64,000 bases of DNA from Thermoproteota archaeon (lineage in GTDB: Archaea > Thermoproteota > Thermoprotei_A > EX4484-217-1 > JAPDJV01). Within the stretch, counting starts at the first letter, position 1, and each line of letters opens with the position of its first letter. The notes beneath the pieces are model-generated. The model had not been told where the DNA came from and searched no databases. It saw nothing but the letters and a program-made list of their open reading frames with translations. The translations under genes were made by a program, and so were the position numbers. This document shows, one piece after another, positions 2,623 through 38,684 of this stretch. The DNA lies in assembly GCA_029258925.1 (NCBI GenBank), contig JAPDJV010000010.1, positions 32,126-96,125 on the forward strand, in the 5' to 3' direction.

Positions 2623-3050
2623 AACTCTCCCTCACTTCAAATTATTCGCAAAGAATGATATAAATAATTTGATCAAAGAACAAGAATAAGGATAATATAT
2701 ATGCTGTTCTTAAACATTCATTGAATCTGAAAACTTGTCCAATAATTCTAAACGAATATTAGAGTTGATTAAAATATTTGAAGAATAATTCAACAACTGT
2801 TCTTTTAACGGTGCCGTGGAATTCCGAGATAGACCCAAGCTAACCAGCATCGCCCATAAAACAACACTCCTTACCTCATTTTACAATTATTAGTTGCTCT
2901 ATGGAACCAAGTTTAATACATGCACAATTTTCTTAGCACATATTTTATTGAACAGGTAGAATACTTATTGATGTTGACAACAATCTGCTTATTGGCGAGG
3001 TGCTTAAAATAACTTGTAGGTTGAATGGTATTGCCACTCTTTGATTACAT

Positions 3051-3662
3051 TTACAAGGAGATCCTCCTTGTGGCGAAGCGTATTGCTAGAAACATAGATA
3101 ACAATAGTCCAGTCAATATTATGAAACCTACCATTAGACCTATGTCAAGCACTTTCTCCCTTAACATTAATACCAGCTTCATTGCAAGAGGATATTCGTA
3201 GACATAGGCTACGTGTATGAGGAAAAAGTACCAGAACACTTTCCCAGCCGTTCTCTCATACCACTCTCTCGCCGCTCCCTGTTCTTTGAATATTGAGAAG
3301 TATGCTGATATCGAGAAGATAAATGGAACTATGAGTGCCATAGAGAACGTGGGATCCATTCCGCCGAGGAATATTGGGGGAAGGTTGAGTAGTATTGAGG
3401 AGACACAGTATCCTAGTAGTGAGGATATGAATACGAATAGTATGTGGGATCTCTCAATAGTCTTCCCAACGTAGTATCCGAACATGAATCCTAGAATTGA
3501 AAGCATTAGAAAGTTCTCACCGGGATGGAATGATGGCTCGAAACCGAAGAGTAACGGTAAGTTCTTGCCGAAGAATATGATAAACCATCCACCAGTAATA
3601 CCCGCAACTATGGCTCCAGCAATTCTCGTAGCTTTCCCCATACTAACCCCTCCCTTAAACAC
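3051..3662 (-). CDS. integral membrane protein (about 6 TM helices), unknown function
   Basis: Hydrophobic segments separated by short loops, with a Gly-rich N-terminal TM. Confidence 0.55.
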   Translation of the reverse strand: MFKGGVSMGKATRIAGAIVAGITGGWFIIFFGKNLPLLFGFEPSFHPGENFLMLSILGFMFGYYVGKTIERSHILFVFISSLLGYCVSSILLNLPPIFLGGMDPTFSMALIVPFIFSISAYFSIFKEQGAAREWYERTAGKVFWYFFLIHVAYVYEYPLAMKLVLMLREKVLDIGLMVGFIILTGLLLSMFLAIRFATRRISL

Positions 3663-3995
3663 GATAATCCATAATATAATATTTTTTATTCAATAAAATA
3701 TTTGCTAAATAATGATGCAACATGATTGCATGCGAATTTCAATAATCTTTGAGTAACTAGTTTCAAGGGCTTGGGAAACAACGGGCTTTCCGTATTAATG
3801 GGATTCTATGATTTTAGTAGAATAATGATATTTTAGGCTTGATTAATAACTTGTCCGCTTAACTAGTATCCTGTTTCCGACGAGAATTTGGAATTGTTTC
3901 GAATATTTTCTTCTATTAAAATAATCATAATAACATTCATTATTATAATACCATATTAATATTACGTGCCACAAATAAATATGGGGTAATTTTTC

Positions 3996-13121: not shown

Positions 13122-13690
13122 CCCTGAACACCTCCGGAACTCAGGGAGAAGAATTTAAAATATTTAAGCTTACTTAATAAATATATTTAACAAATGTCAT
13201 TTCACATCCCCAGCATATACAATGATACATCTTTAAGCTTTCCCAGAGACTTCCGCACTAACAGTCAAGACATATTATAGAGTTTGAATATTATTGTCTT
13301 AAGTCTGGTCAAACTATGAATTCCACAATCTAGAAGTCTCGATCTTCCATAAGAATATTCACCGAAATCTCTATTACAATAACTCTTTAAACAATAATCA
13401 ACACTTACTCTAATAAAATATTTAATCGATGAAAGACCCATATTAAACTGTTCCCTTATGTTAAAGTATAGTCGATGACAATTATTAATCTTAGGATATA
13501 TGAGCATTATAAGCTACATGATGTTTGTAGGATGTTTAAGAGTGGATGTCCTAAATATTTATTAACCAATTTATTATAAAATGTTCATTATCGATTAATC
13601 TACAAGTAGTAAGTATTTTATAATATTGTTATAAATATATTTATAATGAATTACTGTATGGAAAGACATCAAATATAAGGAGGTTATAAT

Positions 13691-21481: not shown

Positions 21482-21928
21482 ATGTTTGGGATGGTGGATG
21501 TTTTGAGCGGTAAAGCTGTGGAGAAGTTGAAGAGGAGGTCACGGGTTTTCTTGAGGGAGGCTAGGAGGCTTCTTGAGGAGGGCGAGTACGATTTAGCTTG
21601 TTTCAATGCTGAACAGGCACTTCAGCTCTTCGTGAAATCTACTGTTCTCCGCTTACTAGGCGAGGAGATAAGGGGGCATGGTGTGAGGAGTATTTTAGGC
21701 TACCTGGCTGGGAGGCTTAGGGAGATGAACTACAGGGAATTAGCTGAGAGAATTGCTAAGACAGTTAGCGATTGTAGGTATGGTTTAGTGTTGCTTGAGG
21801 ACGCATATGTTGATGCTAGATATGGTTTGAGAAGTTTCAGCGAGGAGGAAGCTAGGGAGGCTATTAGGATTGTTGAGGAATTTATAAGATTGCTGGAGGA
21901 TGTTGAGGAAAATGTGTGGATGGGCTAG
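21482..21928 (+). CDS. HEPN-domain protein of a HEPN-MNT module
   Basis: Carries EYDLACFNAEQALQLFVKS..HGV..IL and DARYGLRSFSEEEAREAIRIVEEF. The 3' end overlaps the MNT start by 29 nt. Confidence 0.8.
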   Translation: MFGMVDVLSGKAVEKLKRRSRVFLREARRLLEEGEYDLACFNAEQALQLFVKSTVLRLLGEEIRGHGVRSILGYLAGRLREMNYRELAERIAKTVSDCRYGLVLLEDAYVDARYGLRSFSEEEAREAIRIVEEFIRLLEDVEENVWMG

Positions 21929-22256
21929 GTATAAAATTGAATACCTTAAAAATTGGAGGAGGTACGTGCAGACACTGGCTGAAGCAGTTAAAAGTGTTAT
22001 TCCCGGCTCGGAGACCTATGTTTTCGGTGGAGCAGCTGAAAACAGGTTGACTGTTTTAAGCGATATAGATGTACTGGTTATTATAGACAAGTACTTAACA
22101 GACCGGGAGAAGAGGAGGGTGAAGAAAAGTATATTAGATGAGGCGTCCCGCCGTGGACTCCCATGGGATTACCCTGTTGAAATCCACGTAGTCTCCAGAG
22201 AAGAGTCGAAGAAGTATTTCAAGTATTCAGGGAAGCTCATAAAAATAAGGGCTTAA
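21900..22256 (+). CDS. minimal nucleotidyltransferase (MNT)
   Basis: Carries the NTase motif GGAAENRLTVLSDIDVLVII. Confidence 0.85.
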   Translation: MLRKMCGWARYKIEYLKNWRRYVQTLAEAVKSVIPGSETYVFGGAAENRLTVLSDIDVLVIIDKYLTDREKRRVKKSILDEASRRGLPWDYPVEIHVVSREESKKYFKYSGKLIKIRA

Positions 22257-25209: not shown

Positions 25210-25548
25210 GTGTCGCATAAAGAGGAGAAACGTGGACTCAGCGATGTGGAGGAGCTTAGAGGAGTTTTAAATACTATTAGCGATTTCCTAAAGGGTCTAG
25301 GGCCTCTGCTCAGCGGACTAATAAGAGAGGTCATGGATAGTTTGAGCGGTGAGAAAATAGGGGAAAACGTGGCTACCTTCTACAGGAAGCTCAAGGAATC
25401 CGAGATGCCCGATGATGTAGTAACTGAGCTTACGAGGAAATATTATGAGGACCTTATGATACTTGACAAACTAGTTGAGCAGTTCACAAAGAGGATATCT
25501 GAGGGTAAAACCAAGGCCGTGTTCAAGCTTGGTGAGGAAGAAGAGTAA
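25210..25548 (+). CDS. hypothetical acidic helical protein (112 aa)
   Basis: Intact ORF with no motif. Confidence 0.4.
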   Translation: MSHKEEKRGLSDVEELRGVLNTISDFLKGLGPLLSGLIREVMDSLSGEKIGENVATFYRKLKESEMPDDVVTELTRKYYEDLMILDKLVEQFTKRISEGKTKAVFKLGEEEE

Positions 25549-25613
25549 AACCACACACCTTTTCATCTCTCAAACCACTATAAGCTTTAAGGCCTCATCA
25601 GAGGAATGCCATC

Positions 25614-26057
25614 TTGGAGGAGTTTGAGAACAGACTTAGGAGACTTGAAGAGTTACTGAGGGAGGTCGTGGCTAGACTTGAGAAACTAGAACGCCTTCTC
25701 TCCCCCAGCGAAGCCCGTGAAGAACTTAAAACTGTGATTAGTTTATTAGGGCTTGGACTGGCTCCTGCAAGCAAGGTGCTAGAGTCATCTAGGAGAGCGC
25801 TGACAGCCTTGAGAAGAATTAGAATTGTTGGACTATATGATGACATTACGAGGGCTATAGTTGAAGTGCTAGCAGCTCACCCTGAAGGCCTTAGTGTAGC
25901 AGAGCTTACAAGGAGGATTAGAGAGGTCAGAGGTAGAGCCTCCCGTAGGATTATAGCTGAAAGAGTGAGAAAGCTGCGGGAAAAGGGAGTCGTGGAGGCC
26001 GTTGGAGCTGGGCGTGATAGAAGGATTAGGCTTAGGTGTGTAGGCGGTGAAGACTAG
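25614..26057 (+). CDS. coiled-coil plus winged-helix (MarR/ArsR-like) DNA-binding protein
   Basis: N-terminal heptad-like LRRLEELLREVVARLEKLERLL and a C-terminal wHTH (ILAAHPEGLSVAELTRRI...LREKGVVEAVG). Confidence 0.5.
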   Translation: MEEFENRLRRLEELLREVVARLEKLERLLSPSEAREELKTVISLLGLGLAPASKVLESSRRALTALRRIRIVGLYDDITRAIVEVLAAHPEGLSVAELTRRIREVRGRASRRIIAERVRKLREKGVVEAVGAGRDRRIRLRCVGGED

Positions 26058-26325
26058 AAGACTACTAAGGCTTATCGCAACCCTCCTACACCTCGCCATA
26101 ATCTTTCTGATCGCAAGCATTAGAATATCTCTCTCAACCCTCACTTTAAGACTCAGATTGTGGAGGCATAAGAGGAGGCTTAGAGGAAAACTAGTCAAGG
26201 CAGGGCTGCCTAGAAAGCTAGCTGACGATATATCCTCAGACTATGCTGAGAGAATGATGAAAATGAGTAATCCTCTATCCATAAACTTCCTTAGAAGAGT
26301 CTTAAGGGAGGCTAGGGGGCACTAG
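26047..26325 (+). CDS. small basic membrane protein (92 aa)
   Basis: One TM segment (LIATLLHLAIIFLIASI) followed by an Arg/Lys-rich tail. Confidence 0.35.
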   Translation: MKTRRLLRLIATLLHLAIIFLIASIRISLSTLTLRLRLWRHKRRLRGKLVKAGLPRKLADDISSDYAERMMKMSNPLSINFLRRVLREARGH

Positions 26326-26905
26326 ATAACATTATCAAGTAAAGCCTATTCAGATAGTTGACTAGTAGTCGCCTTAACCCTCCTAGTCACCCTTGATTGC
26401 TAGATTAAAACCGTTAAGCTGAATCATTGGAAAATTGCTGTCGTCTCAATATGCAATACATGTCGTTAACGTAAATTTAATGTACGTATTTAAAAATTTA
26501 TGAAGGTCTTCACCGAGGTTTCCAGTAAACTCTTCAAGCATTGTGAGTGAAATGTGGATAATAGGTTTCAGCCAGCCTAAGCCAGCATACTTCCCACAAT
26601 AACCACATTTAACCCACTATACTTATGAGCTACTGGCTAACCTCTATGGCGACCTCCATTATATCTGGATGTACAATCCACTATATTAAGCTATTGTTTA
26701 AATGAAAGCATGTATTCTTTAAATATAGCTTAAACTAAGCAATTATCTAGTTTTAAATACAATTATTATTGAAGCAAAGCGCCTAGAGATCAAGTGTCGC
26801 CTAAACTACTTCACCAAAACATTAATTCTATTCTCTTCACATATAAGGATTTCAGAGCCACTAAATCCCTCCGACTCCCTTATATGTGGGTTTAATGATT
26901 AAGTT

Positions 26906-27139
26906 GTGGGAGAAGAGGTGCAACGTAAGCTTTCATACAGTGAGGTCAAGGAGTTTTCACGGAGGCTTCGCAGAGAGGTTTTCAAGAAAATTTTATCGCT
27001 GAGGAAGAAGCCTAGATCCACTAGGAGGAGTATTGAGGAGTCTTTAAGGCTGGGGGAGACAGCTATTTTTGCAACTAGACTATATGTCGAGGTGGTTTCT
27101 TGGAGGAGAGAGAGGAGAGAGCTAAGGTTGAGAGTATAG
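26906..27139 (+). CDS. small Arg-rich protein (77 aa, GTG start), putative partner/antitoxin-like protein of the downstream NTase
   Basis: Highly basic (RRLRREVFKKILSLRKKPRSTRRS). Its 3' end overlaps the next gene by 40 nt, and a perfect 11-bp inverted repeat lies just upstream. Confidence 0.4.
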   Translation: MGEEVQRKLSYSEVKEFSRRLRREVFKKILSLRKKPRSTRRSIEESLRLGETAIFATRLYVEVVSWRRERRELRLRV

Positions 27140-27723
27140 TTAAAAGATTGTATGAGGAGTTTGTAGGTAATATTCTGGGAAGACTTGGAAGCATTGCTGA
27201 TGAAACTAAGAGATATCTCGTATTCCTGTCATGGCTTAATAGTAGGCTTGAAGAGGAGGGGTTGGGGAGGATAATAGTTACTGGAGGCTTTGCTGTCGAA
27301 GTTTACACTGGTAGAACTCATAGGACTCTTGATGTGGATATTATCGTTGAGGGTGAAGATGCTTCGAGAATTGTCGAAGATTTTCTAAGATTGTTCTCTG
27401 AGAAAGTGGGTAGAGGTTATCTTCCATATTATGAGGCTCTAACAGTAAAGTCAATAGATGTTGTCTCAACAAAGTACTCTAGGATTATTCAGCCAACAAT
27501 ATTGGATGTTGACGGGAGACGAATTTACCTTGATCCACCCGAAGAACTCATAGTAACTTACCTAGCTGGATGGAAGTTCTGGGATTCAAGTGAAGACAGA
27601 GATAAAGCGTTATGGTTGTACATAGTGTGGAGCAATAAGCTAGATAAGAAAATTCTGGGGAAGCTTGCTGACTTGAGAGATGTTTACGATAAACTTGTTG
27701 AGCTAGAAGAATTAGTGAAGTAA
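27100..27723 (+). CDS. nucleotidyltransferase-fold protein (DUF6036/AbiEii-like NTase)
   Basis: Carries RIIVTGGFAVEVYTGRTHRTLDVDIIVEGED, matching the hG[GS]...DhDh NTase motif with a helical C-terminal domain. It starts at the TTG at 27100. Confidence 0.55.
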   Translation: MEEREERAKVESIVKRLYEEFVGNILGRLGSIADETKRYLVFLSWLNSRLEEEGLGRIIVTGGFAVEVYTGRTHRTLDVDIIVEGEDASRIVEDFLRLFSEKVGRGYLPYYEALTVKSIDVVSTKYSRIIQPTILDVDGRRIYLDPPEELIVTYLAGWKFWDSSEDRDKALWLYIVWSNKLDKKILGKLADLRDVYDKLVELEELVK

Positions 27724-28003: not shown

Positions 28004-30826
28004 TTGATTGCGCTAGACGGCCTACACCCCCATGTTAGGAGGCTTTGGGTTGCTAGAGGATTTAAGGAGCCCACACCCCCGCAGGCTGAAGCTTTCCCCC
28101 GTATTCTTGCAGGAGAGAATGTTTTAATCGTTGCCCCGACTGGTACTGGGAAGACTGAAGCAGCTTTCCTCCCAATACTCTCAATGCTTTTAGGGGAGGG
28201 TAGCAATGGGATTAAAGCAGTATATGTAACACCTTTGAGAACACTTAACAGGGATATCTTGGATAGGCTTAAATGGTGGTCTCTGAAACTAGATTTACGG
28301 ATAGCTGTTAGACACGGTGACACGTCTACTTCTGAGAGGAGGATTCAAGCCCTCAAGCCGCCAGACATATTGATAACTACTCCTGAAACATTTCAGCTAC
28401 TCCTAGTTGGAGGAGTATTGAGGCAACACTTATCCGCATTGAAGTGGATTATCGTCGACGAAGTCCATGAGATTGCTGACAGTAAGAGAGGAGTCCAGCT
28501 TACAATATTGTTGGAGAAGGCTAGGAGGATTGCTGGCCGAGAATTCCAGCTAATTGGATTATCTGCTACGGTAGGTAATCCAGGTGAAGTAGCGGAGTTC
28601 ATTGTTGGATCTGGGAGGAAGTGCAGCGTAATCTATACTCCCGTGTCCAAAATGATTGAAGTAGACGTCATCTGGCCCGATGAAATATTTGAGGACAGTG
28701 CTTTAGCTGAGAAATTGATGGTTACTAGGGAAGTAGCCTCACGTCTCCGCTACATTAAGAGTGCATTGAGTAAATACAGGAGTATTCTGGTATTTTCGAA
28801 TACTAGACCCACGGCGGAGATGATTGGTAGCAGACTTAAGTTATGGGACATTGACTTGCCAGTTCACGTTCACCATGGAAGCCTGTCCCAGGTTGAGAGA
28901 ATTAGGATTGAGGAAATGCTTAGGGAGGGCAGTATTAAGGGTGTTATCTGCACTTCCTCGATGGAGCTGGGCATAGACATAGGCTACGTAGACTTCGTAA
29001 TCCAATACAATTCCCCCAGAGAGGTTAAGAGACTTATCCAGAGAGTTGGGCGGTCAGGCCATGGGATTGGGAGAGTGAGTAGGGGCGTTGTTCTAGTTGG
29101 AGACAGCGATAATGCTCTGGAAGCAATAGTTCTAGTAAACCTATTGAAGCGAGAACAAGTTGAACCATCTAAGTATCCCCCTAAACCCCTAGACGTATTG
29201 GCTCATGAAATAATAGGCTTCGCCGTCTCCGGAAAATACACTTTAGATGAAGTATACGAGTTGGTGAAGAAAGCAGTTCCATACAGGGATCTAGATAGGG
29301 ATGAATTCAATGTTCTCGTAGAATTCTTATCTAGTATAGGACTACTAAGCGTGATCGGAGGCTACGTGAGGCCTGCAGGTAAGAGGACGTACGATTACTT
29401 CTTCAAAACGCTGTCAATGATACCGGAAGTCAGACAGTATTATGTTGTCGACAGGGAGGAAAAAATTGTCGTAGGTCTCCTAGACGACTTCTTCGTTTCA
29501 GAATACTGTGAGCCCGGGGCAAGATTCATCATGGCTGGGAGACCCTGGGAAGTACTATCTCTAACAGAGAAAACAGTTTACGTTAAGCCCGTGGAAGACT
29601 ATAGGAGTGCCATACCTAGTTGGATAGGAGAGGAAATACCTGTATCATATGATGTGGCGCAGGAAGTGGGCAGGATTAGGGGTCTAGTAGAGGAGATGGC
29701 TAAGAGCGGTTTAAGCCTTAGTGAAGTAGTTGAAACATTGTCTGCGAAGTACGGTGCAAACGAGGATACTTTAAGGAAAGCTATTTTAAACGTATACTAT
29801 ATGGTCTCGAAGGGAACCCCTGTTCCAACAGATAGGCGAATAATAGTGGAAGATGCTGGAGACAACATCATAATTGTACACGCACACTTCGGTAACAAAG
29901 TCAATAGAGTTCTCGGAAAATATCTCTCCCACACTCTAGCAGGAATCCTCGGCATACCAGTATACGTAGCGGAGAAGCCGTATAGAATTATTTTGAGAGC
30001 CGAAGGCTTGTGCTCGGAGGATGTTGAATACGTTCTAAGAGACCTGACTGTCGAAGAGTTTAAGAAGAAAGTTTATAGAGCAGTTGAGGAGAGCAGGGGG
30101 TTCAGGTGGAGACTTCAACAAGTAGCTAGGAGAATGGGGGTCATTGAACCGGAGAAAACTCTTAGCAGGGCTGACCTTGAAAATCTCGTTCTATACCTTA
30201 AAGATACGCCCCCATATTTGGAAGCGTTAAAGGAAGTACTATACAAGGATATGGATATGGAGAGAGCTTTAAGTGTTGTAGAAATGCTGGAGAGAGAGGA
30301 GGTCGAAGTTAAGAGTATTAGAGGACCCACAAAGCTTACCTTAGAGTACTTCAAGTTCCTAGGAGGATACATGGAGCCAAGGCTTCCGGAGAAGAGGGAT
30401 ATAATCTCTCATATAATATTTAAAACAAGGATTCTATCCAACATAATTTCTCTCGGCTGCTTAGACTGCGGTAATGTGTGGAGTATCCAAGTATCCAAGT
30501 TGCTTGGGGGAATAGAGTGCCCCGTGTGCTTCTCTAAGAACATCGCGTTCGATGTTATTGGAGAAGAAGAGTTGAGTTCGCGGATTAGGAGGTGTAGAAG
30601 CCGTAAGAGGGGTAAGGGATGCAGAATTCTATGGGACAGCGTTAGGATGTTAAGGGAGCACGGGGTTGCCGCGGTATTGGCTAGAGCAGCTGGGTTCAGC
30701 TTCAGAGAAATACGTAGGATAGCACTACATTATTCAGGGGATGTCGACTCTTTTTTGAAGAAGCTTTGGGTTGAGAAGAAGAGGAAGATGCAGGAAGCCA
30801 TATTGTCCCGGTTGAGTGAAGCATAG
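28004..30826 (+). CDS. Lhr-type large superfamily-2 helicase (DEAD/DEAH box, COG1201) with C-terminal zinc ribbon
   Basis: Walker A APTGTGKTEAA, DEVH box IIVDEVHE, motif VI QRVGRSGH, and C-terminal CLDCGNVWS...CPVCF. Its length (940 aa) fits archaeal Lhr-like helicases. Confidence 0.8.
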   Translation: MIALDGLHPHVRRLWVARGFKEPTPPQAEAFPRILAGENVLIVAPTGTGKTEAAFLPILSMLLGEGSNGIKAVYVTPLRTLNRDILDRLKWWSLKLDLRIAVRHGDTSTSERRIQALKPPDILITTPETFQLLLVGGVLRQHLSALKWIIVDEVHEIADSKRGVQLTILLEKARRIAGREFQLIGLSATVGNPGEVAEFIVGSGRKCSVIYTPVSKMIEVDVIWPDEIFEDSALAEKLMVTREVASRLRYIKSALSKYRSILVFSNTRPTAEMIGSRLKLWDIDLPVHVHHGSLSQVERIRIEEMLREGSIKGVICTSSMELGIDIGYVDFVIQYNSPREVKRLIQRVGRSGHGIGRVSRGVVLVGDSDNALEAIVLVNLLKREQVEPSKYPPKPLDVLAHEIIGFAVSGKYTLDEVYELVKKAVPYRDLDRDEFNVLVEFLSSIGLLSVIGGYVRPAGKRTYDYFFKTLSMIPEVRQYYVVDREEKIVVGLLDDFFVSEYCEPGARFIMAGRPWEVLSLTEKTVYVKPVEDYRSAIPSWIGEEIPVSYDVAQEVGRIRGLVEEMAKSGLSLSEVVETLSAKYGANEDTLRKAILNVYYMVSKGTPVPTDRRIIVEDAGDNIIIVHAHFGNKVNRVLGKYLSHTLAGILGIPVYVAEKPYRIILRAEGLCSEDVEYVLRDLTVEEFKKKVYRAVEESRGFRWRLQQVARRMGVIEPEKTLSRADLENLVLYLKDTPPYLEALKEVLYKDMDMERALSVVEMLEREEVEVKSIRGPTKLTLEYFKFLGGYMEPRLPEKRDIISHIIFKTRILSNIISLGCLDCGNVWSIQVSKLLGGIECPVCFSKNIAFDVIGEEELSSRIRRCRSRKRGKGCRILWDSVRMLREHGVAAVLARAAGFSFREIRRIALHYSGDVDSFLKKLWVEKKRKMQEAILSRLSEA

Positions 30827-37665: not shown

Positions 37666-38137
37666 GTTGACACTTAACTTTAAGCACTCATTTCACGTCT
37701 GCAACATTCAAACACATTTTAAATATTTAACATGCTCACATGCATTTATCTGGGACACGGAATTCAGCATTGATAATGAGGATTTTGACACTTATCTCTC
37801 CGACAAACCTACTTGCAGAGAGCTATGTGTCCTCTCTTCAAATATTGGAGATGCTAATGTCAAAATTAATAGAAATGTGGAGGTTAAATCCCAAGAAATC
37901 GTTTTGTGTGGAGCATCTAGCAAGTCTTTCAGCATATAACGCCATCACATTACCTTAAGGCTAAAGAGTATAAGGGAAACATTTGAGTTGCATTTATAGA
38001 ACCTCTTTTACAGTGGATATTATCATGAGGATTAATGAGGGGAAGCGGATCAATTATCTTTGACTGTAAGAGTAGCGGATTTTTGCAAAGCCAAAATAGA
38101 ATATCAGGTTAGCTGTAAGCAATATTGCTTCAACGTC

Positions 38138-38173
38138 TCTATACTAAATTTTATGTATAAAATTTAGTATAGA
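38138..38173. promoter_or_regulatory. 36-bp near-perfect palindrome (17-bp arms, 2-nt centre) in a long noncoding region upstream of vapBC
   Basis: TCTATACTAAATTTTAT gt ATAAAATTTAGTATAGA; I checked it base by base, and the only deviation is the central dinucleotide. Confidence 0.5.
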
Positions 38174-38405: not shown

Positions 38406-38684
38406 TTGGTGATACTATTGGTTAAACTTAGAGTTAAGGTTGGACCTAAAGGACAGATAGTAATACCTAAGATTTTCAGGGAAGCCTACAAGATTAAGGA
38501 GGGGGGATATGCAATACTTGAACCAGCAGATGATAAACTAATATTGAGGGGGATGGAAGATCCGAGAGAAGTCTTAACGTGGATTAGGGAGAGAAGGAGG
38601 AGAATAGGTGGTAGGGAGGCTAGATTAGGAGATTTAACTAGAATATACTTAGAAGAGGAATTTGAGAATGAAGGTCTTCGTTGA
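38406..38684 (+). CDS. vapB: AbrB/SpoVT (swapped-hairpin) VapB-type antitoxin
   Basis: Carries VKVGPKGQIVIPKIFREAYKIKEGG (SpoVT_AbrB motif). Its 3' end overlaps vapC by 23 nt. Confidence 0.75.
   Translation: MVILLVKLRVKVGPKGQIVIPKIFREAYKIKEGGYAILEPADDKLILRGMEDPREVLTWIRERRRRIGGREARLGDLTRIYLEEEFENEGLR

Follow-up and report, generated by a model that had tools for sequence, protein, structure and literature searches.

Nucleotidyltransferases of the DNA polymerase β (Pol-beta) fold occur in several described two-gene systems. In the MenAT1 pair of Mycobacterium tuberculosis (Rv0078B/Rv0078A), MenA1 is a helical protein of 68 residues encoded upstream of MenT1, in which T39, D41, K137 and D152 are conserved (PMC10435456). 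MenA-type antitoxins induce auto-phosphorylation of the MenT residue T39 or S78 (PMC10435456, PMC11375011), and MenT-type toxins have electropositive surfaces (PMC7450476). In the AbiE system, the operator of the abiE operon is a perfect 11-bp repeat with a spacer of 27 nucleotides (nt) (PMC3985639). There is also precedent for nucleotidyltransferases which act as modifying antitoxins (PMC7641770). Here, we analyse two overlapping genes, one for a small arginine-rich protein and one for a nucleotidyltransferase, within a 64,000-nt stretch of DNA (the window) from a Thermoproteota archaeon (GenBank assembly GCA_029258925.1, contig JAPDJV010000010.1, positions 32,126 to 96,125 of the forward strand); coordinates below are those of the window. 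We are highly confident that the pair is real, conserved, co-evolving and translationally linked. By analogy with the systems above, a toxin-antitoxin reading with a MenAT1-like layout is plausible.

Conservation and translation of the gene pair

The gene of the small basic partner lies at 26906-27139 on the plus strand, starts with GTG and encodes 77 amino acids. An alternative GTG at 26918 would give 73 residues, and the product is so annotated in a near-identical genome (P0121). The nucleotidyltransferase gene (27100-27723, plus strand) starts with TTG and encodes 207 residues. The whole pair occupies about 830 bp and shares 40 nt (27100-27139, plus strand), the small open reading frame (ORF) being in frame +1 relative to the enzyme ORF. 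What an earlier reading of the letters by themselves (the sequence-only reading) had stated about both ORFs, their 40-nt overlap and the nucleotidyltransferase motif agreed with the sequence on recheck.

A scan of one genome per species yielded 50 loci with the enzyme. Two of these lack upstream DNA and were left out of the count of small ORFs, leaving 48 testable loci. A tblastn search with the 77-residue protein found the small ORF directly upstream and on the same strand in 42 of them, and a profile hidden Markov model (HMM) added two, so that the partner is conserved alongside the enzyme in 44 of 48, mostly with the overlap. The sequence-only reading had named a lack of this conservation as a ground for refuting its proposal, and that refutation fails. 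The four exceptions are an unrelated-looking ORF of 76 residues which overlaps the enzyme gene by 35 nt (L047), a divergent PadR-type regulator as the neighbour (L050), a locus with nothing upstream (L043) and one which is N-terminally incomplete (L037). Across 37 loci, the pairwise identities of the small protein and the enzyme are correlated (Mantel r = 0.73; 0 of 2000 permutations as high). A near copy of the contig (L052, 99.9% identical) shows no informative substitutions, its differences being clustered at the contig end.

No conserved synteny was found with the downstream Lhr helicase or with other neighbours in the window, and flanking gene clusters are common to at most 7 of 51 loci. 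Since no other gene is syntenic with the pair, we regard it as an autonomous unit; its genomic surroundings vary between loci. Both ORFs are genuine genes which are inherited together, and the pair is a previously uncharacterised conserved unit across about 44 species of hot-spring archaea. Copies with 52-60% identity are also present in bins labelled Nezhaarchaeota and Methanomethylicia (L006, L036 and L040), the two Methanomethylicia bins stemming from independent studies. These copies are due either to horizontal transfer or to mis-binning.

The overlap ranges from 34 to 46 nt in 31 of 42 loci; in 19 of these, it is exactly 40 nt long. One frame codes for the small protein's conserved C-terminal hairpin, the other for the variable first ~13 residues of the enzyme. 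The conserved E-V-V-E-W of the small protein is written GAG GTG GTT GA[A/G] TGG, in which GAGGTG provides the Glu-Val codons; the enzyme start codon [A/G]TG is made of the third base of the Glu/Ser codon and the TG of the Trp codon. In the window, this segment reads GTC GAG GTG GTT TCT TGG, and its Shine-Dalgarno-like GAGGTG (27089-27094, plus strand) lies 5 nt before the TTG at 27100. GAGGTG is complementary to the 3′ end of the crenarchaeal 16S RNA. In 30 of 36 loci, a GAGGT-type motif precedes the enzyme start by at most 16 nt, with GAGGTG about 5 nt from the start. The length of the overlap is conserved because the Shine-Dalgarno site and the start codon sit in the EVVEW codons of the small protein. 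By these signals, the enzyme is translated from a ribosome-binding site and a start codon of its own; as both lie inside the conserved C-terminal codons of the small gene, the two products would be made from one mRNA in a fixed relationship. The arrangement is a tidy example of a 40-nt overlap frozen by constraints in two frames.

It is very improbable that the small ORF is fortuitous or stems from a wrongly annotated 5′ extension, or that the two ORFs are one gene expressed by programmed frameshifting. Genes with a −1 frameshift occur in archaea, as in the case of the Sulfolobus fucosidase; the two frames here differ by −1, and one database protein (P0180) reads through both parts in a single frame. 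Against this stand the conservation of the small protein up to its own stop codon in 44 loci, the conserved Shine-Dalgarno site and start codon of the enzyme, the absence of a slippery heptamer from 27100-27139 and the 55 aligned enzymes, all of which start near the same position without an N-terminal extension. A programmed −1 frameshift, or a fused gene, was rejected accordingly. P0180 does align to the small-protein profile (hhalign E=1.6e-4), but its gene, at locus L054, shows a G-run where the two parts meet, is frameshifted a second time near the 3′ end and looks degraded. We rejected it as a natural fusion; the gene is probably a pseudogene or an assembly error. At locus L054 (positions 3001-3745 of a contig from a metagenome-assembled genome, GCA_049973945.1), the small ORF and the enzyme form one frame across a G-run and the last ~30 codons of the enzyme are in another frame. 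The neighbours of this locus encode PaREP1, AAA_14/DUF4143 and an SMC-like ATPase.

The nucleotidyltransferase and its basic partner

The catalytic motif TGGFAVEVYTGRTHRTLDVDIIV (residues 61-83; 27280-27348, plus strand) contains G62-G63, 14 residues and D78-V-D80. The codon of D120, in the strand KSIDxVS, lies at 27457-27459 (plus strand), and the motif K159...E165-D166-R167-D168-K169 of the C-terminal domain (WKFWxSxEDRDKALW) is encoded at 27574-27606 (plus strand). In an alignment of 55 sequences, 35 columns are invariant, including G62, G63, R72, R75, K159 and D166-K169. T76, D78, D80 and D120 are nearly invariant (at least 90%) in the same alignment, D120 being invariant in alignment A1; T61, R105, K117 and E165 are further invariant or near-invariant residues. 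The T-x-D-h-D pattern, with T76 two residues before D78, is kept in distant DUF6036 relatives too.

An AlphaFold2 model of the enzyme, based on the 55 sequences, has a predicted local distance difference test (pLDDT) score of 94.7 and a predicted template modelling score (pTM) of 0.90. It consists of an N-terminal helical hairpin (helices 2-30 and 35-52), a Pol-beta nucleotidyltransferase core and four C-terminal helices. D120 lies on strand 118-123 and, from the topology of the fold, is probably the third metal-binding carboxylate. The K159...K169 motif is probably a binding site for the nucleoside triphosphate or the substrate; in it, K159-x7-R167 resembles motif III (K...R) of AbiEii (PMC3985639), a likeness of motifs and not of superposed structures. 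The model shows what defines the Pol-beta superfamily, namely hG[GS], DhD, a third carboxylate and the expected strand order. We conclude from it that the enzyme is a Pol-beta-fold nucleotidyltransferase with an intact metal-binding set (G62-G63/D78/D80/D120), and its sequence suggests that it is probably catalytically active.

Significant Foldseek matches in the PDB are nucleotidyltransferases only: the fungal nucleotidyltransferase-like 5uvd, ANT(2'')-Ia, MenT1 (8an4, 8an5), TM1012, LnuA and TglT/MenT3. ANT(2'')-Ia and MenT1 are the nearest solved structures (TM≈0.5). MenT1, alone or with MenA1 (8an4/8an5), is matched at E=1.8e-4 to 7e-4 with template modelling (TM) scores of 0.45-0.51, TglT/MenT3 with a TM score of 0.51, and ANT(2'')-Ia and LnuA at E 1e-5 to 3e-3 with TM scores of 0.43-0.49. 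The Pol-beta motif recognised in the sequence-only reading is thus borne out by residues, model and structural matches alike. A PDB sequence search with the enzyme profile gave insignificant matches only.

At the sequence level, the window enzyme falls below every curated threshold. Its best Pfam match is Aminoglyc_resit (E=0.013), beside DUF2204 (E=0.019); PADLOC AbiEii models match over some 65 N-terminal residues of it only (38-104; E=0.002 and 0.012). It has no NCBIfam match and no DUF6036 match even at E≤1. Among the 55 family members, 12 match DUF6036 (E<0.01, best 2.3e-6), eight Aminoglyc_resit, five DUF2204 and one AbiEii (E=0.002). Against the Pfam gathering threshold of DUF6036 (PF19502), 23.6 bits, P0218 and P0229, two proteins retrieved with the family profile, score 37.1 and 37.0 bits. 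The earlier label 'DUF6036/AbiEii-like' therefore holds for DUF6036 at the level of the family; it does not hold for the window protein itself, and the DUF1814/AbiEii HMM thresholds are not reached. Database searches returned 265 homologues with 52-63% identity, hosted by Ignisphaera, Zestosphaera, Thermogladius, Thermosphaera, Pyrodictiaceae and other Desulfurococcaceae. Compared with 1.84 billion representatives, the family profile matched 20 clusters at E<1e-30, 134 at E<1e-10 and 402 at E<1e-3, and distant matches of ~190 residues pass the DUF6036 or NTP_transf_5 thresholds. We assign the enzyme to a tight subfamily whose place is at the margin of DUF6036 and whose fold neighbours are ANT(2'')/LnuA and MenT/AbiEii; it is not a member of DUF1814. 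It does not cluster with housekeeping nucleotidyltransferases, an outcome which would have spoken against the sequence-only reading: its relatives are DUF6036, DUF2204, ANT(2'') and, more distantly, AbiEii/MenT. A literature search found no paper on DUF6036/PF19502 and an incidental mention only of DUF2204.

In the wider family, five of ten relatives with an N-terminal extension carry an HTH_17 DNA-binding domain fused to DUF6036. The upstream gene of one relative (L057) has weak PadR/HTH_11 matches and overlaps the enzyme gene by 4 nt, and L050 has a PadR-like neighbour too. This recurrence of a nucleic-acid-binding partner or domain fits an AbiEi-like repressor-antitoxin and a targeting subunit equally well.

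The small proteins are about 60-77 residues long and share the core R-[ED]-x-F-K..Y..R-G-R-x-R-T-T-R-R-S-x-E-D-S-L-R-L-A-x-L-A-R-E-L...Y-L-E-V-V-E-W-x-G-x-x-R-V-L-x-L-R. R37, R41 and R71 are invariant, and no single Ser, Thr or Tyr is. The model (pLDDT 80, pTM 0.37) contains a helix (11-32), an Arg-rich loop (PRSTRRS), a second helix (43-60) and a C-terminal β-hairpin (61-75); the low pTM fits a small protein which needs its partner to fold. All 51 database relatives are annotated as 'hypothetical' and carry no Pfam domain. No relatives were found in Pfam, PADLOC, NCBIfam or the PDB, and Foldseek against the PDB returned nothing below E=2.8. An excisionase-type winged helix (HTH_17) was considered and rejected (hhalign probability 0.2%; Foldseek against the PDB empty). 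Judged from these sequence searches, the small-protein family is new. In the window, the small protein has an isoelectric point of 11.4 and a net charge of +12, and the enzyme an isoelectric point of 5.0 and a net charge of −8; the family medians are +7 and −7.

The layout resembles that of MenAT1, in which a small helical protein is likewise encoded directly upstream of a two-domain Pol-beta nucleotidyltransferase of ~190-200 residues. In MenT1, the helical domain contributes a conserved Lys and Asp after the [S/T]-x-D (PMC10435456); the counterparts here would be T76-x-D78, K159 and D166/D168, a pattern which distant relatives keep as well. The order T76-x-D78 is that of T39-x-D41 in MenT1 and S78-x-D80 in MenT3, an equivalence by motif and a TM score of ≈0.5, not by residue superposition. 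However, sequence identity to MenT1 is ~17-19% and the family lies below the DUF1814/AbiEii HMM threshold. The small proteins of the two systems lack detectable homology, ours being strongly basic with a β-hairpin at its end. Furthermore, the enzyme here is acidic overall, carries an extra N-terminal helix and comes from a hyperthermophilic archaeon.

With AbiE, the pair shares a bicistronic operon in which the upstream partner gene, the regulator in AbiE, comes first. In both enzymes, the spacer between hG[GS] and DhD exceeds the canonical 9-13 residues (14 here, 15 in AbiEii) and arginines stand just before the aspartates (PMC3985639), those of our family, R72 and R75, being invariant. Both loci have a perfect 11-bp repeat with a 27-29-nt spacer which overlaps a core promoter element (PMC3985639), in our family in the window only. 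DUF1814 motif IV (+DxxD) can be read into the family consensus W-R-D-R-x-D but is not invariant, the window protein having W-S-N-K-L-D. The partners differ: AbiEi is a COG5340 winged-helix protein of ~200 residues, whereas the partner here has 61-77 residues and gives no match. Moreover, abiE loci share inverted repeats and the homologous loci here do not, nor is our pair linked to mobile elements or phage defence.

DUF6036 (PF19502), DUF2204 (PF09970) and NTP_transf_5 proteins have the same length, the T-x-D-h-D pattern and the C-terminal helical motifs. The studied clade stands apart from them as a close-knit subfamily in which the enzyme has an additional N-terminal helix and a partner protein of its own. 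ANT(2'')-Ia and LnuA are among the top matches of solved structure, and Aminoglyc_resit is the best Pfam match of the window protein; the layout of motif I (GG[FW]xV[ED]...GR...R..D[VI]D) also appears similar to that of ANT(2''). These are, however, single-gene resistance enzymes without a partner, identity to them is ~15%, and there is no indication of an antibiotic as the substrate in a hot-spring archaeon.

HEPN-MNT (HepT/MntA, type VII) likewise consists of two overlapping genes, one encoding a Pol-beta nucleotidyltransferase. Our pair differs in that it has no HEPN partner, its enzyme is twice the size of a minimal MNT and of a different family, and its partner is a novel basic mini-protein. 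As the sequence-only reading had stated, no HEPN gene adjoins the pair in the window; in related loci, HEPN accounts for 2 of 84 flanking genes. A canonical HEPN gene (PF05168, E=2e-26; 21482-21928) is found 5 kb upstream with a minimal nucleotidyltransferase gene (NTP_transf_2, E=8e-8; 21900-22256, plus strand), the two overlapping by 29 nt, so this genome carries a classical HEPN-MNT pair besides the studied one.

Promoter region and neighbouring features

The arms CACATATAAGG (26838-26848), a TATA-like 11-mer on the minus strand, and CCTTATATGTG (26878-26888, plus strand) are exact reverse complements of 11 bp with a spacer of 29 nt, just as described in the sequence-only reading. They extend to 20-nt arms of 80% complementarity (4 mismatches). 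Such a repeat is unlikely to be due to chance. In the 64-kb window, three distinct perfect repeats have arms of at least 11 nt and a spacer of at most 45 nt (1.0±1.2 expected); 1.2% of simulated 580-nt gaps hold such a repeat, and comparison of the 120 nt around the start with 200 shuffles gives p≈0.005. The right arm contains TTATAT ~24 nt upstream of the GTG at 26906. At leaderless crenarchaeal starts, the TATA box lies ~26 nt upstream, and this TTATAT is the probable TATA box of the operon. A copy with one mismatch, ACTTATATGTG, is found at promoter distance upstream of ORF 25210, and the start of the homologous locus L054 is preceded, at 27 nt, by CTTTATATA.

A protein on the repeat would block the promoter, as the probable TATA box lies within the right arm. 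The sequence-only reading had taken the repeat for a plausible autoregulatory operator. Conservation does not support this: none of 36 homologous promoters has a significant inverted repeat (median p=0.57). The right arm, moreover, coincides with the probable TATA box. An operator conserved across homologous promoters was rejected; the repeat is a local feature of this genome, which the family as a whole does not share. As the left arm repeats the TATA-like element on the minus strand, the two arms may be a back-to-back promoter pair and the left one a divergent promoter element.

The gap upstream of the pair (26326-26905) is AT-rich as reported earlier (35% GC vs 41.6% in the window), though 580 and not 570 nt long. 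Within it, the segment 26500-26830 folds at −110 kcal/mol on the minus strand (z=−7.1 vs shuffles) and at −71 kcal/mol on the plus strand (z=−3.3). After correction for composition, its two strands are the two most structured of 1158 windows (330 nt, both strands, 64 kb). The core is an imperfect palindrome of ~180 nt (~26495-26675), beyond which the minus strand has a U5 run (~26494-26490). For an RNA which starts near 26816, the left arm of the repeat would lie ~27 nt upstream as a TATA box. Based on this folding, the minus strand of the gap (~26490-26830) is a candidate for a structured RNA of ~325 nt. No Rfam family matches it, and it has neither a second copy in the window nor a homologue among the fetched loci; neither known RNA families nor tRNA genes were found in the gap, and its palindrome has no exact match in a metagenome scan.

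Two other repeats lie elsewhere in the window. A perfect palindrome at 38138-38173, with arms of 17 nt and a 2-nt centre (TCTATACTAAATTTTAT-GT-ATAAAATTTAGTATAGA), is located between the ORFs 37667-37939 and 38406-38684. It is far beyond chance and may be a bidirectional promoter, a terminator or the site of a regulator. At 13572-13582 and 13615-13625, TATTATAAAAT and ATTTTATAATA form a perfect 11-nt inverted repeat with a 32-nt spacer; the repeat is AT-rich and TATA-like.

Upstream of the gap, the gene 25614-26057 (plus strand) encodes a protein of 147 residues with a weak winged-helix match (MCM4_WHD, E=1.5e-4), and a hydrophobic basic ORF of 92 residues (26047-26325) overlaps its end. The string of three genes to which they belong (25210-26325) recurs as a pair in L010 and L045, away from the enzyme. 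Downstream of the studied pair, at a distance of 280 nt, an Lhr-type helicase of 940 residues (DEAD, Helicase_C, WH_Lhr, DEAD_assoc) is encoded at 28004-30826 (plus strand); it is not syntenic elsewhere.

Proposed function and rival readings

The locus would be a leaderless-type bicistronic operon of hyperthermophilic Crenarchaeota (Desulfurococcaceae/Ignisphaera/Zestosphaera group) for an obligate pair of an Arg-rich helical protein and a catalytically competent nucleotidyltransferase. The small protein would bind the enzyme and control it. The likeliest mode would be that of MenA1/MenT1 and AbiEi/AbiEii, in which an upstream partner, small or DNA-binding, holds a growth-inhibiting enzyme in check. 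Control could be exerted via the conserved Thr76 beside the catalytic aspartates, by motif the residue which is auto-phosphorylated in MenT. The substrate may be an RNA 3′ end or another phosphate-rich target and, in this genome, the small protein or another regulator may bind the repeat over the TATA box. We favour such a MenAT1/AbiE-like logic, with the nucleotidyltransferase bound and restrained by its small partner, as a tentative analogy which falls somewhat short of probable. A more specific proposal, which we consider rather unlikely, is a novel control module in which the partner switches the enzyme by modification of Thr76, as in MenT, or serves as its nucleic-acid-binding arm, and which shares back-to-back identical TATA boxes with the ~325-nt RNA of the minus strand.

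Several observations weigh against a toxin held in check. The enzyme is 52-60% identical across genera, which is unusually well conserved for a toxin. The window has a single copy of each gene, the enzyme occurs once in the sole complete genome among the fetched loci, and there is one locus per species genome. The flanking genes in 50 related loci are mostly ordinary metabolic and housekeeping ones (2-hydroxyacid dehydrogenases, tRNA synthetases, radical SAM enzymes), with two PIN genes among the 84, and searches of plasmid, phage and viral sequences found no relatives. No homology of the small protein to MenA1, AbiEi, HTH_17 or any entry of Pfam or the PDB could be detected, the family lacks a shared inverted repeat, the window protein lacks the DUF1814-specific motif IV, and the enzyme model resembles MenT1 no more closely than it does ANT(2'')-Ia and LnuA, which act on small molecules. 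Finally, with a basic small protein and an acidic enzyme, the polarity of charge is reversed relative to typical RNA-targeting toxins and their antitoxins, MenT-type ones included. Much of this favours a non-toxic two-subunit enzyme, in which an Arg-rich subunit delivers RNA or DNA to an acidic catalytic subunit for some lineage-specific physiology such as RNA 3′-end tailing, repair or marking. The complementary charges, the conservation, the single copy, the housekeeping-type neighbours and the lack of mobile elements all agree with it; strict co-inheritance and translation from one mRNA are expected for the subunits of a complex, and the fusion of a nucleic-acid-binding domain to the enzyme in distant relatives suits a targeting domain better than an antitoxin. 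Nevertheless, among characterised two-gene systems of this fold, the closest relatives (MenAT and AbiE) are toxin-antitoxin pairs, the family is small (the 402 clusters at E<1e-3) and the apparent in-frame fusion P0180 is probably a frameshifted pseudogene. The absence of named cultured Desulfurococcus or Staphylothermus entries among the matches listed (120 of 265) is weak evidence on the same side. On balance, a two-subunit enzyme appears to us a serious though unlikely alternative. The AT-rich gap had been read as what is expected of an accessory or defence locus, a reading which finds no support: in addition to the flanks and the lack of relatives on mobile contigs, the GC content of the pair is typical of the window and no flanking direct repeats, the signature of an integration, were found at it. 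Ordinary neighbours, typical GC and no mobile relatives do not favour a mobile defence element, and a chromosomal toxin-antitoxin pair stays compatible with them.

Two further explanations have been considered. If the small protein were a transcription factor only, an autorepressor on the repeat without a protein-protein role, the enzyme would be an independent small-molecule nucleotidyltransferase like ANT(2'')/LnuA. The perfect repeat over the TATA box in this genome, the Pfam and structural matches to Aminoglyc_resit, ANT(2'')-Ia and LnuA, and the helix-turn-helix partners and fusions in relatives would suit this model. We nonetheless consider it improbable: all 36 homologous promoters lack a significant repeat, the small protein is not a recognisable helix-turn-helix, its pTM suggests that a partner is needed for folding, and it co-evolves strongly with the enzyme. 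The polarity could also be reversed as in type VII, the small protein being the harmful or regulated component and the enzyme nucleotidylating a hydroxyl in its R-x-R-T-T-R-R-S loop, as MntA does on HepT. Such a loop, rich in Ser/Thr and Arg, is conserved between the two helices, an acidic enzyme would attract a basic protein substrate, and modifying antitoxins of this kind have the precedent cited above. However, the small protein has invariant arginines and no invariant acceptor residue, nothing indicates that it is toxic, and the enzyme has the larger two-domain architecture of MenT/AbiEii/ANT(2'') and not that of a minimal MNT; we judge this reversal distinctly improbable.

The partner family is new, the enzyme subfamily is an uncharacterised one and a dual-coded overlap of this kind is uncommon, but the architecture as a whole is of a known type. 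To our knowledge, few toxin-antitoxin or enzyme-regulator pairs have been tested in hyperthermophilic archaea, and we know of no function for DUF6036/DUF2204 enzymes. The locus delimits, at the edge of DUF6036, a clear and conserved subfamily of two genes in these organisms, the enzyme having an obligate partner. If the pair works as MenAT1 does, the range of nucleotidyltransferase toxins under the control of a partner would come to include a new enzyme family and the Crenarchaeota. If it does not, the small protein would be a new nucleic-acid-binding subunit of a nucleotidyltransferase.

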